This document shows positions 8,564 to 55,217 of a stretch of 64,000 nt of DNA, piece by piece. Each line of letters begins with the position of its first letter. Position 1 is the stretch's first letter. Source of the stretch: Escherichia phage MN01. The stretch lies in the sequence record MT129652.1; one strand, given 5' to 3'. A program made the position numbers and the translations under genes. The notes below the pieces were generated by a model. The model was not told where the DNA came from, made no database searches, and worked only from the letters and a program-made list of their open reading frames with translations.

Positions 8564-8587
8564 AGAATCCCCTTTTATCTTTATTGA

Positions 8588-8599
8588 TATTTATAAATA
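8588..8599. promoter_or_regulatory. divergent overlapping late promoters (TATAAATA on both strands)
   Basis: Plus strand TATAAATA at 8592-8599 upstream of gp26; minus strand TATAAATA (plus-strand TATTTATA at 8588-8595) upstream of gp51. Confidence 0.7.
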
Positions 8600-8616
8600 C
8601 AGTAAAGGAGCAAATT

Positions 8617-9240
8617 ATGACTTATGAATTTATTGTCCAAATTAAAAATAAAACTATAAATTGTAGGGCTTTTACCTTGCGCGAATACAAAGATTTGCTT
8701 CAGGCAAAATTAGAAAAGCGTATGGAACCTGCAATAATTGAACTGCTTAATAAATGCACTGATGCTAAAGGATTGAATAAACAGGAAGCTGAACTGCTTC
8801 TTATTAATCTCTGGGCAAATAGTCTCGGAGCTGTTAACGTCGAGCATACATGGGTATGTGAGTGTGGAAAGGAACAAGATATTCCGGTAACGATTAGTCG
8901 CGCGAGCATCGTGGATGAGACTGAAGTTATTCGTGATTTCGGGTCGTTTAAAATTAAATTCCGTTATCCCGGACTGTTTGAAGACAGTGATAAAGGTAAA
9001 ATGATTGCTTGTTGTATCGAATATATTATCACGGAAGGCGGCGAGCGCATCGTTGTTGATGACTTAAATGAGGCCGAAATCGAGGACCTGTACAACGCAA
9101 TTACCCTCGATGATATAAATGCACTAACGGAAGAACTTCTCAAGCCACAGGTCCAAATGGCTATTCCTATCTCTTGCGAGTGTGGAGCACATTCTGTCCA
9201 TGTAATTAAGGGGCTTAAAGAATTCTTTAAGTTTATGTAA
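8617..9240 (+). CDS. 26: baseplate hub subunit gp26
   Basis: 207 aa from ATG at 8617, downstream of late promoter and AAAGGAG RBS; T4 gp26 is 208 aa; synteny. Confidence 0.8.
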   Translation: MTYEFIVQIKNKTINCRAFTLREYKDLLQAKLEKRMEPAIIELLNKCTDAKGLNKQEAELLLINLWANSLGAVNVEHTWVCECGKEQDIPVTISRASIVDETEVIRDFGSFKIKFRYPGLFEDSDKGKMIACCIEYIITEGGERIVVDDLNEAEIEDLYNAITLDDINALTEELLKPQVQMAIPISCECGAHSVHVIKGLKEFFKFM

Positions 9241-9630
9241 ATGAATATAAACAAAATGTATAGCGATGTATCTCCCGACTTATCTACAAGTTGGGATAAA
9301 GACGTTGCTAAAGTAACCGGTGCAAGGTCTGTTAAGAACAGTCTTCTGGGAATAATCACCACAAGAAAAGGGTCACGGCCTTTTATGCCTGAATTTGGAT
9401 GTGATATAAGTAATCAGCTTTTTGAGAATATCACTCCATTAATCACAGATACCATTAAACGCAACATCGTCTCCGCGGTGCGGAACTTCGAACCACGGAT
9501 AAGCAATCTACAGGTTGCAGTTGTCCCTATGTATGATGATAACTCCATTATCGTAACGGTTCAGTTTAGCATTGTTGATGACCCTGATACCCTCGAACAA
9601 ATCAGGATTCAGTTAAGTCAAAACGGTTAA
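9241..9630 (+). CDS. 25: baseplate wedge protein gp25
   Basis: 129 aa (T4 gp25 132 aa); resemblance to T4 gp25; synteny. Confidence 0.85.
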   Translation: MNINKMYSDVSPDLSTSWDKDVAKVTGARSVKNSLLGIITTRKGSRPFMPEFGCDISNQLFENITPLITDTIKRNIVSAVRNFEPRISNLQVAVVPMYDDNSIIVTVQFSIVDDPDTLEQIRIQLSQNG

Positions 9631-9667
9631 TGCTTTAATTTTATGGCTGTATAATGGTTCTAGACCC
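9631..9667 (+). promoter_or_regulatory. middle (MotA-dependent) promoter module for uvsY
   Basis: MotA-box-like TGCTTTA at 9631-9637, 12 nt spacer, TATAAT at 9650-9655, followed by conserved GGTTCTAGACCC. Confidence 0.65.
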
Positions 9668-9683
9668 TTACATTGGATACATT

Positions 9684-10118
9684 ATGAAAACAGAGATTGA
9701 ATATAAGTTAGAAGTCTTTCAGGATGAGTTAGATGCAGATTTAAAAATTGATGGTACGCAACTTCAATATGAAACACAAAACAACGTTTTGTTGCATAGC
9801 AAATGGTTGAGATTGTATACCAACTGCAAGAAAGAAATAATGCGTCTTGAGATTCAGAAGAAAACTGCACTGAAAAAACGACTAGACCATTATACGGGAA
9901 GGGGTGACCCAGGGGAAGAGGTATGCATGGATGTATACGAGAAGTCAGAATTGAAAACAGTCATGGCCGCAGATTCAAGCGTACTGAAGATTGATACTTC
10001 AATTCAGTATTGGGCACTACTCCAGGACTTCTGTAGCGCTGCATTAGATGGTGTTAAGTCACGAAGTTTCGCACTTAAACATATGTTAGAAATAAGACAA
10101 TTTGAGGCAGGCAAGTAA
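9684..10118 (+). CDS. uvsY: recombination mediator UvsY
   Basis: Close match to T4 UvsY as recalled (KLQYE..NNV, SKWL, GRGD, QYW, FCS.ALD, KSR.FA.KH); start at MKTEIEY. Confidence 0.9.
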   Translation: MKTEIEYKLEVFQDELDADLKIDGTQLQYETQNNVLLHSKWLRLYTNCKKEIMRLEIQKKTALKKRLDHYTGRGDPGEEVCMDVYEKSELKTVMAADSSVLKIDTSIQYWALLQDFCSAALDGVKSRSFALKHMLEIRQFEAGK

Positions 10119-10943: not shown

Positions 10944-12442
10944 TATATTTCCACCTGTTTAATTACATAATTGAATTTTTCGTCTGCATACCGCTGAATA
11001 CGTTCTAATGCATGTTTAAGCGCAAAGTTAATATGAACATATTTCTTTTTAGCGTTTGCTGATTTGGGTTTGACCCCCATATCATCCACAATGTCCCACA
11101 CGTTTGCGGTCGATTTAGATTCATGTTTTCGAAGCACACGGCCAATTGTCTGGAGTACAATTACCTTTGACTTGACCGGGTGAGCGAAAATAATATGATG
11201 GAGGTTTTTAACGGAAATACCCGTCGAGAATACACCATATGAAGCTACAACAATAATTCCTTTTCCATTCTCTGCCATGACCTTCAGAGCATTACGGGTT
11301 TCGGTATCAACTTCCCCGGAAACATAATACACTTTCTCATGACCAGCTTCCTTAATCATTTCAAACATCGATTTGCCGTGCTCGATATTCTTAAACATCA
11401 AAAAGACGTTTTCATCTTTTTTAGAAAGCTTGAGGGCAAGGTTTGTCACCCATTTATTTCGGCGTGTAGCTTTTGTAATTACCTTGATTTCATCCTGATA
11501 AGTTTTGCCTTTCATTTTAACGGTGAATTCATCAGGGTAACGAAGGAAAATACTATTTATTTTAAGGTCAGTAACCTGACCGTCTTCCATCAATTTAGAT
11601 GTTGACACTGGTTTAAAGATATCACCAAACAGACCCATATATTGCATAAGGTTGGCTTTGCCATCACGGAGTGAACCTGACAAACCAAATTTAAACATGC
11701 AATTCGTAAGGCCTTCGATAACCGTCGAAATCGATTTACCGGTCGCCATATGACATTCGTCATTCATAAACTGGCCAAACTGTTCAAACCATTCTTTAGG
11801 TTGTTTTACAGCCGTCTGATAAGTCGATACATAAATCATCGCATCAGAATCACGTTTAGTCCCAGAACGAATACCCAAACAAGCTTCACGAGGGAACAGT
11901 CGATAATCAACAAAGTCATTAATCATCTGGTCAACAAGCGCGGTTGTAGGAACAAGGATAAGAACCTTGCCTTCATAGTTCTCGAGGTAATATCGCGCCA
12001 GAAGCGCCTGGATGAGGCTTTTACCTGCAGACGTAGGTAAGTTCAAAATCTTTCTTCTGTTGACCAGGCCATCATATACGGCGTCAGATTGATACCAATG
12101 GGGCGTTATCTTAGTATTGCCTGAATAGATTTCTTTTGACTCAACCCATTTGTTGAATTCTTCGCGAGAGATTTCTTCTTTCTCGGTGATTTGTGGGTCA
12201 ATCCAGAATGAATAGCCAAACTGGTCAGCGAACTTTTTAATTTGATTAACCAAACCGTATGGTAATTTACGATTGTAATCCAGGAGGCGGATTCGTCCGT
12301 CCCAAACTCCCTGCTTGAATTTTGGATTGAAGCGATAGTTTTCAGCTTCGAAGCTGAAGTAATCACGGAGTTCATAGAAGATTCCATCTTCACATTCAAC
12401 ATGCACGTGACTAAAATTTAGAAAGTTGATTTTAATATCCAT
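10943..12442 (-). CDS. uvsW: UvsW DNA/RNA helicase
   Basis: SF2 helicase motifs (Walker A TSAGKS, DECH box) and resemblance to T4 UvsW; start at internal Met downstream of late promoter. Confidence 0.85.
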   Translation of the reverse strand: MDIKINFLNFSHVHVECEDGIFYELRDYFSFEAENYRFNPKFKQGVWDGRIRLLDYNRKLPYGLVNQIKKFADQFGYSFWIDPQITEKEEISREEFNKWVESKEIYSGNTKITPHWYQSDAVYDGLVNRRKILNLPTSAGKSLIQALLARYYLENYEGKVLILVPTTALVDQMINDFVDYRLFPREACLGIRSGTKRDSDAMIYVSTYQTAVKQPKEWFEQFGQFMNDECHMATGKSISTVIEGLTNCMFKFGLSGSLRDGKANLMQYMGLFGDIFKPVSTSKLMEDGQVTDLKINSIFLRYPDEFTVKMKGKTYQDEIKVITKATRRNKWVTNLALKLSKKDENVFLMFKNIEHGKSMFEMIKEAGHEKVYYVSGEVDTETRNALKVMAENGKGIIVVASYGVFSTGISVKNLHHIIFAHPVKSKVIVLQTIGRVLRKHESKSTANVWDIVDDMGVKPKSANAKKKYVHINFALKHALERIQRYADEKFNYVIKQVEI

Positions 12443-18023: not shown

Positions 18024-18063
18024 TTTGCTTCAAATAAAAATGCGGTATAATGGTTCTAGACCC
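18024..18063 (+). promoter_or_regulatory. middle promoter module upstream of rnlB
   Basis: TTGCTTCA MotA-box-like element, 12 nt spacer, TATAAT at 18046-18051, then GGTTCTAGACCC. Confidence 0.6.
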
Positions 18064-18148
18064 TTTGCGACTATTAATTCCTTTCAGAGAAAGAAAGTAT
18101 AGTGGGTCTAATTTATAATGATATTTATAACATCAAAAGTGAGAGAAT

Positions 18149-19156
18149 ATGTTCAAGAAATACAACAGCCTTGAAAATCACTATAACAACAAGTTCATTG
18201 AAAAGATTCGCCTGCAAGGCTTCACCAACGGTGAATGGGTAGCACGTGAAAAGATTCATGGCACCAACTTTTCATTAATCATTGAACAAAACAATGTGAC
18301 ATGTGCGAAACGCACTGGGCCTATCCTGCCTGCAGAAGATTTCTATGGTTATGAAATTGTACTAAAGAACTATGCTGATTCTATTAAATCTGTGCAGAAA
18401 CTTTTGCAGGATATCAATTACCAGGCGTATCAGATTTATGGTGAGTTTGCCGGGGCAGGTATCCAGAAGAATGTGGATTACGGTGATAAAGATTTTTATG
18501 TCTTTGATATCCGCGTTACTAAAGAAGATGGTTTTGAATCCGTCCTGACTGACACTTTGATGGAAGCTTTCTGTATTATCCATAAGTTTAAGGTTGCGCC
18601 GCGCCTAGCCACGGGTAGCTTTGAAGACTTGATTAAGCTCCCTAATGACCTGGATTCCGTTGTTCCTGATTACAATTTTACAGTGGATAATGCGGGTTTG
18701 ACTACAGCAAATACCACTGATTTTGACGCGAAGGTTGAAGGTAAAGTATTCACTGCTGAAGGATTTGTATTAAAACCTGATGTTCCTGCATGGTTACCCA
18801 ACGGCGAGCGTGTAGCTATTAAATGTAAGAACTCTAAATTCAGCGAAAAGAAAAAGTCTGATAAACCTATTAAGGCTGCTGTTGTGTTGTCCCAGGAAGA
18901 CCTGGATATTTTATGGAAGTTCACTGATTATGTGACTGTTAACCGTATTAATAATGTTATCAGTAAGATTGGTGAAGTAACACCTAAGGATTTTGGAAAG
19001 GTAATGGGGCTAACGGTCCAGGATATTCTGGAAGAAGCTGGTCGTGAAGGTCTTGAATTGTCCCTGACGGAAAATCCTGTTGAAGTTAAAAAGCAACTTA
19101 TTGTAAATGTAAGAGAAACATTAAGACATGTTTGGATTGCATTAATTAGTGAATAA
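18149..19156 (+). CDS. rnlB: RNA ligase 2 (RnlB)
   Basis: 335 aa (T4 Rnl2 334 aa); nucleotidyltransferase lysine motif KIHGTN; position next to gene 24. Confidence 0.85.
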
Positions 19157-51861: not shown

Positions 51862-51869
51862 TATAAATA
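51862..51869 (+). promoter_or_regulatory. late promoter for gene 4
   Basis: TATAAATA about 28 nt upstream of the gp4 ATG, with GGAGG RBS. Confidence 0.6.
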
Positions 51870-51897: not shown

Positions 51898-52347
51898 ATG
51901 GCATACTCCGGGAAATTTAAGCCCACTAATATAGAAAAATATAAGGGCGACTGGAAGAAAATACAATACCGGTCAAGTTGGGAGGCTTGGCTGATGAGAT
52001 GGCTCGACAACCATCCGAACGTTGTTCAATGGGGTTCTGAGACTGTCATTATTCCCTACTTTAGCAATGCCGATGGTAAAAAGCGCAGATATTATATGGA
52101 TTTCTGGGTTAAGTTCGATACGGGACAACAGTTCTTTTTCGAAGTTAAGCCATTAAAAGAAACAAGACCTCCAGCCAAGCCAGTTAATAATACAGCCGCG
52201 AGTAAAAAGAGATTTATTAACGAGATGTACACCTGGAGCGTTAACTCTGACAAATGGAAAGCTGCGCAAGCTACCGCAGATAAAATGGGTATAACGTTCA
52301 GGATAATCACTGAAAACTCACTGAAAAAATTAGGATGGAAAGGATGA
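51898..52347 (+). CDS. 4: head completion protein gp4
   Basis: 149 aa (T4 gp4 150 aa); synteny 4-2-3-1. Confidence 0.8.
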
Positions 52348-53168
52348 GTATTTTTACATTTATCAATGAATCTGCAGATAAACCAGGTCCGAAACCCAGT
52401 AAATCCGAACAACAATGGGTTGAGATAGGGGTTGAATTTTATACAGCAAAAGAAAAAGGAATGACCTCGAAGAAGTTTGCTGAAGAGAAAGGAATCAACT
52501 ATTCGACCTTTACCAAAAGCATGTCAAGATATCATTCGAGAATTCAGACTGCTTATAAAGTATCCAAGCTCAAAAAGAAACCTGCTGGTAAACTTACGAA
52601 GGCTGAACGCCAGCTGATAATGGTGAATAGCTTTAGGAAGAGCATAAGAGATAAGATTGCCAACGAAGGCGCTGCAAGCAACACCAAATCTGCCAGATGG
52701 TTCGCAGAGACAATTAAGAAATCAGTTCGCGGACACGTAACGGCTAAACCTCAACCAGGTAAACTTTATGCTTATATCTATGATGCAAAGCATAAGGATA
52801 CTCTTCCATACTGGGACAAATATCCGTTAATCATTTATCTTGGTCTAGGTAAGCATAATTTGATGTATGGTTTGAACTTGCACTATATTCCACCAAAGGC
52901 ACGTCAAGAGTTCCTTGAGGAACTTCTTAAGCAATATGCTAATACTCCTACGATTACTAACAAGACTCATCTGAAGATTGATTGGTCAAAGGTGAAGGGA
53001 TTTAAAGGGGCTGACCAGATGATTAAAGCATATATACCTGGCAATATAAAAGGTACTATCACTGAAATCAAGCCCAGCGACTGGGCAAACGTTGTTATGC
53101 TTCCGTTGCAACAATTTATGTCGAAAGGCAAAAGATTCTCTTCACAGAAAGTATGGAGAAATTCATAA
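52335..53168 (+). CDS. 2: DNA end protector protein gp2
   Basis: 277 aa (T4 gp2 274 aa); basic; synteny. Confidence 0.75.
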
Positions 53169-53203
53169 TCTATTATCGGTCAGTGTTATTGGTAAGGACA
53201 AAA

Positions 53204-53241
53204 GGTCTAGAACCATTATAACACTGATTGTTTTAAAGCAA
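53204..53241 (-). promoter_or_regulatory. middle-promoter module on the minus strand, antisense to gene 2
   Basis: Minus strand reads TTTGCTTTA (MotA-box-like), 13 nt spacer, TATAAT, GGTTCTAGACC: the same module as at 9650, 18046 and 28204. Confidence 0.45.
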
Positions 53242-53253
53242 ACAAGGTGCATT

Positions 53254-53853
53254 ATGTCAGGTTTATATAATCAAACTAACACGACTAACTTTATATTAGA
53301 GGTAAGCGATTCAAACCTCACACAGACCTTTAAACTCAACGTTCAAGACGTTACCCTCCCTGGAGTTCACATCCCTGTGACAGATGTCCCTGGTGGAACA
53401 CAAGGTATAAATCGCTCCAGTCTTCCTGGTAGTACAATAGAATTCGACCCGCTGATTGTTAACTTTCTGTGTGACAAAGACCTAAGAGCATGGCTTGACA
53501 TTTATAAATGGATGCTCTCGCTCAACAACTACATCACACACGAATCAAAAGCATGGCATCCGAAGGGTCGCCCCGAAGCGGTCACGCTTCATATCTTAGA
53601 TAATAACAAGGACAAAATTGTCATGTCAATCCATTACTATGGGGCATGGCCGTCCGACCTGTCAGAGATTCAGTACTCATATAAAGAAGATTCTGACCCG
53701 GCTATCAATGCAACAGCAACTTTTAACTTTAAGTCTTTTGCTGTAGAAATTGATGGTATAATAATAGAAGGTAGACCACAGATTGATAGTAATGCAGCAA
53801 TGCAACAGGAAATCAGGTCTAAGTCAATGCATCCATCTATGAGAAACGTATGA
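53254..53853 (+). CDS. 3: tail completion / sheath stabilizer protein gp3
   Basis: About 199 aa from ATG at 53254; synteny between 2 and 1. Confidence 0.7.
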   Translation: MSGLYNQTNTTNFILEVSDSNLTQTFKLNVQDVTLPGVHIPVTDVPGGTQGINRSSLPGSTIEFDPLIVNFLCDKDLRAWLDIYKWMLSLNNYITHESKAWHPKGRPEAVTLHILDNNKDKIVMSIHYYGAWPSDLSEIQYSYKEDSDPAINATATFNFKSFAVEIDGIIIEGRPQIDSNAAMQQEIRSKSMHPSMRNV

Positions 53854-54526
53854 AATTAATTGCGATTGTGGGTAAAAAACGCAGTGGTAAAGATACGACT
53901 GCTGATTATGTTATTAGTCAAAATGGAACAAAGTGGCAGCTTGCAGGTCCGATTAAAGAAGCGCTTTATAAAGCGTGGATTCGTCAAGACCTGCCACACA
54001 ATTTGACCCTGGAAAATTTTGATGGACAAGGTTACGACCGTGAAAAAACCTTGATAATGAACAACACCGAAGCTTATATTCTTCTGGTTGATGCTCTTGA
54101 ATGGTTGAAACAACAATACAATCTTGACCTTCCTAATCCAGATATGGTTCGTAAAATCATTGAATTTCACACACTAAATAATGTTGAGCCCTGGACAGTT
54201 AGACGTTTCATGCAGACCCTTGGAACTGACATCGTTTGTACAGAGTTCGACAGCATGTTTTGGATTAAAACTTTTGCGTGCGATTATCTTGACAACCTCT
54301 ATTCTGGATATAAATATTACGTTGTCCCAGATGTTCGCCAAAAGAACGAACTTGATTCGCTTCGGGCGATGGGTGCTACAATAATCTTTGTAGAACGCGA
54401 TGAAGCAAATCATTCTACTGATACACACATTACGGAAGCTGGACTTCCACCACTAGCTAGTGACATTGTTATTAAAAACGATGGCACACTCGAAGAACTT
54501 TTTGATAAAATTAATAAGGTAATATA

Positions 54527-54527
<1 letters not shown>
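53850..54527 (+). CDS. 1: deoxynucleoside monophosphate kinase gp1
   Basis: P-loop GKKRSGKDT near the N-terminus; 225 aa; synteny. Confidence 0.85.

Positions 54528-55217
<690 letters not shown>

Follow-up and report, generated by a model that had tools for sequence, protein, structure and literature searches.

The window analysed here is the whole 64,000-nucleotide stretch of Escherichia phage MN01 (MT129652.1). Judged by its sequence, it is from a Gaprivervirus of the VR7/SP18 type, and the region 52300-54600 is 97-99% identical to the corresponding region of the Gaprivervirus phages ECML-359, VR20, VR26, VR7 and SP18. Gene identities in the window were taken from these annotated relatives at 97-99% identity, and they show that the names gene 2 and gene 3, already used in the initial annotation, are the correct T4 names. 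The genes around the locus of interest are arranged as follows.

Left of gene 4, minus strand: genes 53 and 5
51898-52347, plus strand: gene 4
52335-53168, plus strand: gene 2
53166..53177, plus strand: the gene 2 stop codon with a conserved 9-mer, TAATCTATTATC, recognised by comparison of relatives
53254-53853, plus strand: gene 3
In the same plus-strand run as genes 4, 2 and 3: genes 1 and 57A

A late promoter at 51862, ahead of gene 4, is the only late promoter that serves gene 3. The gene 5/53 region contained no early-type promoters beyond chance that could feed plus-strand read-through into genes 4-2-3.

Between genes 2 and 3, the minus strand carries an element whose sequence is that of a classic MotA-type middle promoter of T4, its -10 extended by TGn. 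Its parts are the following.

53234..53242, minus strand: MotA box TTTGCTTTA, centred near -30
53221..53233, minus strand: 13-nt spacer AAACAATCAGTGT, whose last three bases, TGT, form the TGn extended -10
53215..53220, minus strand: -10 hexamer TATAAT
53204..53214, minus strand: discriminator and start region GGTTCTAGACC, with the predicted +1 at A53208
53185..53191, minus strand: CAATAAC box, at +18..+24 of the predicted transcript

The box fits the T4 MotA consensus, (a/t)(a/t)(a/t)TGCTT(t/c)A (PMC1524935, PMC2988021), and TATAAT follows it at 13 nt, where middle promoters have TAnnnT 11-13 bp downstream. The start was set ~7 nt past the -10. Across the window, TTTGCTTTA-N10-15-TATAAT occurs once, against 0.01 occurrences expected from shuffles. 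The initial annotation had described a minus-strand box, a 13-nt spacer, TATAAT and GGTTCTAGACC between genes 2 and 3, and all of these are present on reading from 53242 to 53204; only its interval, 53204-53241, needs correction, being one base short because the box begins at 53242. Its prediction of a transcript running antisense into the 3' end of gene 2 agrees with the layout as well, since an RNA starting at A53208 would enter gene 2 after 40 nt; the corresponding distance between predicted start and gene 2 stop is 61 nt in the T4 counterpart. Within the spacer, TCAGTGT doubles as the 3' arm of a hairpin on the sense strand, and an A/C substitution is found among VR20, VR25 and VR26.

The core of this promoter is repeated elsewhere in the genome. 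An exact 17-mer, TATAATGGTTCTAGACC, occurs three times in the window, at 9650 (plus strand), 18046 (plus strand) and 53220 (minus strand); with up to three mismatches allowed, 0.19 occurrences are expected, and no shuffle got to three. The other two copies belong to promoters that stand ahead of genes.

9629..9669, plus strand: module 1, the uvsY promoter, ortholog of T4 PuvsY/oriF (AATGCTTTA, 12 nt, TATAAT, GGTTCTAGACCCTT), with the uvsY ATG at 9684
18024..18066, plus strand: module 2, the promoter ahead of rnlB, RNA ligase 2 (TTTGCTTCA, 13 nt, TATAAT, GGTTCTAGACCCTT), with the rnlB ATG at 18149

In IMG/VR, the genomes of VR20, VR25 and VR26 each contain exactly three copies of the 17-mer, at the same loci as in the window, and the rnlB copy is invariant in all three despite differing flanks. 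Occurrences of the 17-mer in four unrelated IMG/VR contigs have no MotA box and were set aside as chance matches. Two observations concern late promoters near these modules. A late-promoter motif, TATAAATA, lies at 18122-18129 on the minus strand, within the 85-nt leader that separates the rnlB module from its ATG, and points in the opposite direction. At 8588-8599, two TATAAATA motifs overlap on opposite strands at the start of a gene 26-like ORF (8584-9240, plus strand), probably a pair of late promoters placed back to back where genes 26 and 51 diverge.

To place the antisense element in the wider T4-like group, 45 junctions of genes 2 and 3 were compared, drawn from T4, the window and genomes in IMG/VR, with gp3 identity ranging down to 47%. 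An antisense GCTT box, 11-14 nt and TATAATG stand just upstream of gene 3 in 39 of the 45 loci, comprising 30 distinct sequences, and in these 30 orthologous sequences the -10 hexamer is invariant or nearly so. Information content, computed on the orthologs anchored at the hexamer, reached 2 bits in the -10, 1.8 at G-6, 1.3 at G-5, 1.65 at T-1, 1.2 at A+1 and about 1-1.4 across GCTT, and only 0.1-0.6 bits in the spacer. Constraint that is specific to the boxes, combined with low conservation of the spacer, is the signature of a promoter rather than of a generally conserved block. From these alignments, the 2/3 element is a positional ortholog older than the split of Tequatrovirus, Dhakavirus and Gaprivervirus. 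The argument of the initial annotation that chance had become less likely is strengthened by both the expectation of 0.01 for the pattern and the recurrence of the same architecture at the same position in 39 of 45 T4-like loci. It had gone on to suggest either a regulatory role or cassette mobility; because the element is conserved at one position, T4 included, a functional or regulatory role is likely on the sequence evidence, and that part of the suggestion is retained.

Four loci of a motA-positive clade (L043, L045, L046 and L048), in which gene 2 runs directly up to gene 3, do not have the element, nor do two differently organised loci (L039 and L044). At least five phages without the element still have motA, so the element is dispensable. 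A correlation between motA and the element was considered and dropped: the motA scan was pattern-based and missed known carriers, such as the JS98-like phages, so that its negatives are unreliable, and it yielded only that motA-positive phages can lack the element. The adjoining sequence is subject to insertion. A MobB-like homing endonuclease gene of ~650 bp is found in VR7 (L002 2369-3025), VR25 (L006/L022) and one JS98-like phage (L011/L027), between the gene 2 stop and TCTATTATC. Its insertion junction is exactly the TAATCTATTATC site (window 53166-53177), and the promoter element is intact in the carriers. The endonuclease is of the HNH type, and the identical junction is used in Gaprivervirus and in a Dhakavirus-like genome. 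A TAAT(T)CTATTATC motif 3' of gene 2 is kept out to T4.

With these comparisons in hand, the mobility part of the earlier suggestion can be weighed. In a PeSL, an early promoter is directly preceded by a terminator stem-loop; such cassettes occur in large numbers, occupy hyperplastic regions and adjoin lineage-specific genes. Phage nt-1 is known to have PmSL cassettes, which are built on Mot-box promoters (PMC4122927). The present module resembles such PeSL/PmSL cassettes (Arbiol 2010; Comeau 2014) in its short, near-identical promoter repeats (three identical 17-mers per genome), in the inverted repeat nearby and in the neighbouring insertion/deletion polymorphism of the homing endonuclease. 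A recently mobile cassette of this type that landed between genes 2 and 3 would, however, be expected to look different in several respects. Upstream of the box, on the promoter's own strand, there is no stem-loop terminator, that position being taken by the ribosome-binding site and ATG of gene 3, and modules 1 and 2 likewise have no stem-loop. The copies number exactly three, at the same loci in VR20, VR25, VR26 and the window and indeed in all Gaprivervirus genomes checked; these are conserved core locations rather than a hyperplastic region, and the inverted repeat straddles the -10. Above all, the site is orthologous across genera, including T4. A recent cassette is therefore effectively refuted by positional orthology as read from the sequences, and together with a chance match, for which the expectation is 0.01, it is so improbable that we give it almost no weight. 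Identity of the copies within a genome has the appearance of evolution in concert with the uvsY promoter rather than of a recent transposition.

The same intergenic stretch also folds strongly in the sense direction.

53177..53230, plus strand: stem-loop right after the gene 2 stop, -24.6 kcal/mol, z -3.75, with none of 200 shuffles as stable

Its loop takes in the antisense -10 and start site, and UUGUUUU follows it. Late transcription reaches gene 3 from 51862 alone and so has to pass through this hairpin. A hairpin stands 3' of the gene 2 stop in most lineages, the sense strand being the more stable in 13 lineages versus 4, and in the JS98-like clade one compensatory pair (an A-U, G-U, G-C series) is seen. 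The stability of the fold, the uridines after it, its recurrence and this pair would suit an explanation in which the conserved feature is the sense hairpin, serving to stabilise the mRNA 3' end, to direct processing or to attenuate expression between genes 2 and 3, and the likeness to a promoter on the opposite strand is incidental. However, the covariation is statistically weak, as 54 of 500 shuffles do equally well, and the U-tract is not conserved, being absent in T4 and JS98-like phages. The stem is A+T-rich, the loop is large, and the terminator scan made no call there. The -10 falls within the hairpin in phages of the VR7 and JS98 types; T4 and several further clades have the whole hairpin downstream of the start, clear of the -10, and yet GCTT and TATAATG are invariant there with fixed spacing. 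The MotA box is outside the hairpin in every lineage, and an identity with PuvsY, described below, would be left unaccounted for. We regard an incidental promoter likeness as very unlikely; the hairpin is most likely a coexisting mRNA feature and not the source of the promoter boxes.

Between genes 3 and 2 of T4, opposite both, TAATGCTTTA, 13 nt, TATAAT and GGGTCTAAGTCC occupy 75966-76005 on the plus strand, with a predicted start at about 76,000 on that strand. The published table of mapped T4 middle promoters, with ~58 entries that all run counter-clockwise (PMC2988021), does not include the site, and the GenBank and RefSeq T4 records have no entry for it. The T4 2/3 site may thus be newly recognised, though an earlier prediction is possible in a literature that was covered in part. 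By dRNA-seq, 150 phage start sites, including 22 in antisense, are reported for T4 (bioRxiv 10.1101/2024.04.04.588121).

When T4 was scanned with the pattern [TC]GCTT[TCA]A, 11-13 nt, TATAAT, the minus strand returned eight sites, seven of which are experimentally mapped middle promoters. The plus strand returned only two, at 11885 and 75988, and neither is in the mapped table. The single minus-strand site off any listed start is at ~132,792 in NC_000866 (AACCGCTTTA, 13 nt, TATAAT); the start of Pcd is listed at 132,839, 47 nt from this MotA-type match. The mapped T4 promoter PnrdC.7 is identical to the window over TATAATGGTTCTA and starts at the same A, and the PuvsY start is the A equivalent to A53208. 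PnrdC.7, P1 and P57A, which are ordinary T4 middle promoters, follow the same grammar as the 2/3 site. The activators are available in the genus: motA and asiA, genes that lie outside the window itself, are annotated in VR7, which is 97% identical across the locus, and motA relatives are present in VR20, VR25 and VR26. VR7 MotA (L133 4716-5324) has only 35% identity to T4 MotA (L082 46467-47102), yet the two phages have practically identical MotA boxes (TGCTTtA).

Given its sequence, the 2/3 site is very probably a working promoter. With the same high confidence, we take it to be a real and ancient middle promoter whose product would be an untranslated antisense RNA.

The family has another clockwise, MotA-type promoter, which adjoins the modA stop and points into modA, with its predicted start 11 nt from the stop.

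T4 NC_000866, 11,863-11,910 (L080), plus strand: modA-tail promoter, AAATGCTTTA, 12 nt, TATAAT, GAATCTAAGTCC
VR7 NC_014792, ~11,660-11,713 (L134 3660-3714): modA-tail promoter, CGCTTTTA, 11 nt, TATAAT, GGTTCTAAGGTC

This modA-tail promoter is common to both genera and missing from the mapped T4 table. Whereas the tabulated T4 middle promoters stand ahead of the genes that they express, the 2/3 and modA-tail sites run clockwise into the 3' end of the gene upstream.

The predicted transcript itself shows few features of a defined product. A small downstream ORF was rejected as a candidate, having 16 codons here, ~45 in T4, 11 in L053 and 2 in L036, in differing frames and without conservation. 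In the window phage, the antisense RNA has no significant fold from +1 (z 0.07). A hairpin at 53086..53072 was considered as the terminator of a short RNA and discarded; it lies in conserved gp2 coding sequence and is not kept in T4 or JS98-like phages. Counts of terminator-like matches downstream of the promoter are within chance. Rfam covariance models, run on both strands, identified no family; a SNORD59 match (E = 4.8, 15.9 bits against a gathering threshold of 45) is attributable to chance.

An untranslated RNA of this kind may act on the genes that it opposes. Through RNA pairing or polymerase collision at the 2-3 junction, it would limit premature or excess late expression of genes 4-2-3 until middle transcription is shut off. 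With the start 40 nt from the gene 2 stop (61 nt in T4), the RNA must overlap the gene 2 message. Gene 3 lacks its own late promoter, so every gene 3 transcript crosses the site; no reading frame is conserved downstream; and the modA-tail promoter repeats the geometry in T4 and VR7 alike, its start 11 nt from the stop, which hints at a 'tail-on' design used more than once. On the other hand, such control has neither a conserved terminator nor a defined RNA end to rely on, and the late operon promoter is active mainly after middle transcription declines. In the carriers of the ~650 bp endonuclease gene (VR7, VR25 and one JS98-like phage), promoter and gene 2 are held apart by the insert and the element has not changed, although the insertions may be too recent for decay to show. 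Control of the late genes by antisense RNA or interference would, moreover, leave unexplained both the CAATAAC box and the twinning of the start region with PuvsY that is set out below. We consider it possible, if somewhat unlikely.

PuvsY has its closest paralog in the 2/3 site, a likeness that takes in the stretch in which the oriF R-loop forms. When the two were paired within each genome, lineage by lineage, they were found to share a start region that differs between lineages.

Gaprivervirus: 2/3 site and PuvsY both with GGTTCTAGACC
T4-like phages: 2/3 site and PuvsY both with TCTAAGTCC
L037 clade: 2/3 site and PuvsY both with the 18-mer GGTTTTGAGTTC, present in exactly two copies per genome
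JS98: 2/3 site and PuvsY both with AGTGTATAATGGTCCTA, 17 nt

The VR7 start region TCTAGACC is the counterpart of T4 TCTAAGTCC. In T4, TCTAAGTCC has exactly three genomic copies, at PuvsY (oriF), the 2/3 antisense site and the plus-strand modA-tail site, and each directly follows a MotA-type promoter. Because most T4 middle promoters do not have this start region, it is not a generic optimum. The lineage-specific identity of the 2/3 site and PuvsY points to concerted evolution of both sites, the cause of which could be gene conversion or a shared constraint. The copies diverge outside about -16..+8.

Further resemblances extend into the transcribed region. CAATAAC recurs at about +10..+24 in both families. 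Among distinct start regions of the 2/3 family, 11 of 27 have it at +13..+18; of the uvsY-promoter leaders, 6 of 20 have it at +10..+20, T4 oriF (the 115,352-115,362 region) being one of them, against a background expectation of ~0.005 per 33 nt. Some genomes have it at one site only, namely at uvsY in T4 and at the 2/3 site in VR7 and JS98; it was not found in the uvsY leader of the window nor at the T4 2/3 site. At +4..+33, G is scarcer in the three TCTAAGTCC promoters than in any other of the 57 mapped T4 middle promoters and two unmapped plus-strand sites scored. The same core occurs at ordinary mRNA promoters, at rnlB here and nrdC.7 in T4, so that the core alone is not origin-specific.

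These data bear on a more modest account, in which the promoter works and its RNA has no selected function, the site serving for polymerase binding or as an insulator, or persisting through gene conversion from the uvsY promoter. A very stable open complex would be expected of a promoter with TGn, a perfect -10 and a GG discriminator (PMC2988021 and general promoter knowledge), some motA-positive clades dispense with the element, and identity within genomes is what gene conversion would produce. Nevertheless, box-specific constraint with a variable spacer in at least four genera speaks for selection rather than drift. Inverted copies ~40 kb apart are not known to undergo gene conversion often, and the copies differ outside about -16..+8. 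An RNA without a selected function appears quite unlikely.

The role that we propose instead follows from the pairing with uvsY. Because the 2/3 site is the sequence twin of the uvsY promoter of its own lineage, which in T4 is oriF, we propose that it acts in cis via its transcript. A T4 R-loop origin is defined by a middle-mode promoter within an ~100-bp minimal origin, and oriF and oriG each consist of a middle promoter and a downstream unwinding element (PMC3016281). At the level of sequence only, the 2/3 site agrees with the first part of this description, in having a middle-mode promoter. For the second part, the nearest-neighbour stability of +1..+50 was -58.8 kcal/mol in the window, compared with a T4 background of -61.0 +/- 4.0, -58.0 at oriF and -62.6 at oriG. 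Duplex stability or A+T content of this interval was set aside as a test for an unwinding element, as oriF and oriG are themselves not separable by it from other T4 middle promoters.

The two promoter-driven origins of T4 illustrate how far the parallel extends. Like the 2/3 site, PuvsY (oriF, ori(uvsY)) has a MotA box, a 12-13 nt spacer, TATAAT, a G-rich discriminator and a start at TCT-A. It differs in being the promoter of uvsY mRNA, co-oriented with its neighbours, whereas the 2/3 site points against both neighbours, with no gene downstream. Of the two, PuvsY is the one for which R-loop formation and plasmid replication have been shown (PMC3016281). The second origin promoter, P34i (oriG, ori(34)), is MotA-dependent, lies among late genes and makes a non-coding RNA antisense to late gene 34, and its core, TATAATGGTCCCA, is of the same TATAATGG type as the 2/3 site. 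P34i is within coding sequence, and the 2/3 site is intergenic.

In the mechanism that we envisage, MotA would bind TTTGCTTTA at -30 in the prereplicative 'middle' period, and the AsiA-remodelled sigma70 RNA polymerase would use the TGT-TATAAT extended -10 and the GG discriminator. The first transcribed base would be the A in TCT-A-GACC, about A53208 of the minus strand, and the RNA would pass the complement of the gene 2 terminal hairpin before running into gene 2 in antisense. The 2/3 site would act in cis through this untranslated transcript: the nascent RNA would be kept hybridised downstream of the start, in the CAATAAC-containing region, the DNA would be opened or primed, and replication would thereby be sent toward the adjacent late-gene block (53, 5, 6 and onward). 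We infer transcription, MotA dependence and an R-loop or primer role from the likeness to these T4 promoters. Several points weigh against an origin here: reviewed T4 origin maps show oriA, C, E, F and G only, with none at 76 kb (PMC3016281), and a companion T4 review finds no middle-mode promoter near oriE (annotated at 79,355); motA-positive phages can lack the element, the core recurs at ordinary mRNA promoters, and neither the window's uvsY leader nor the T4 2/3 site has CAATAAC. On this analysis, the selected role of the 2/3 site may be origin-like, of the oriF/oriG R-loop type, with a rough probability of 0.35, and we slightly favour it over antisense or collision control of genes 4-2-3.

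A broader version of the origin-like reading would make the 2/3 and modA-tail promoters unrecognised R-loop initiation sites of the oriF/oriG type, kept across Tevenvirinae and priming clockwise leading-strand synthesis into the major late block. This extension is speculative and, in our estimation, unlikely. If it were true, synthesis from the 2/3 and modA-tail sites would be co-directional with late transcription, and the 'missing' middle-mode promoter of the wider T4 oriE region would be supplied. The lineage-wise co-evolution with the oriF promoter would be explained as well, possibly through a shared phage factor or hybrid-forming properties.

T4 is the reference system for both sigma appropriation and R-loop-primed replication, and the 2/3 site would bear on either subject. 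If it fires, the middle-promoter class would gain a member of unusual orientation, and the start signature TATAATGG-YYTA-RGWCC followed by CAATAAC would mark a promoter sub-class that co-varies within genomes. Even if an antisense RNA were its only product, the site would still represent a conserved case of tail-on antisense control of phage genes.
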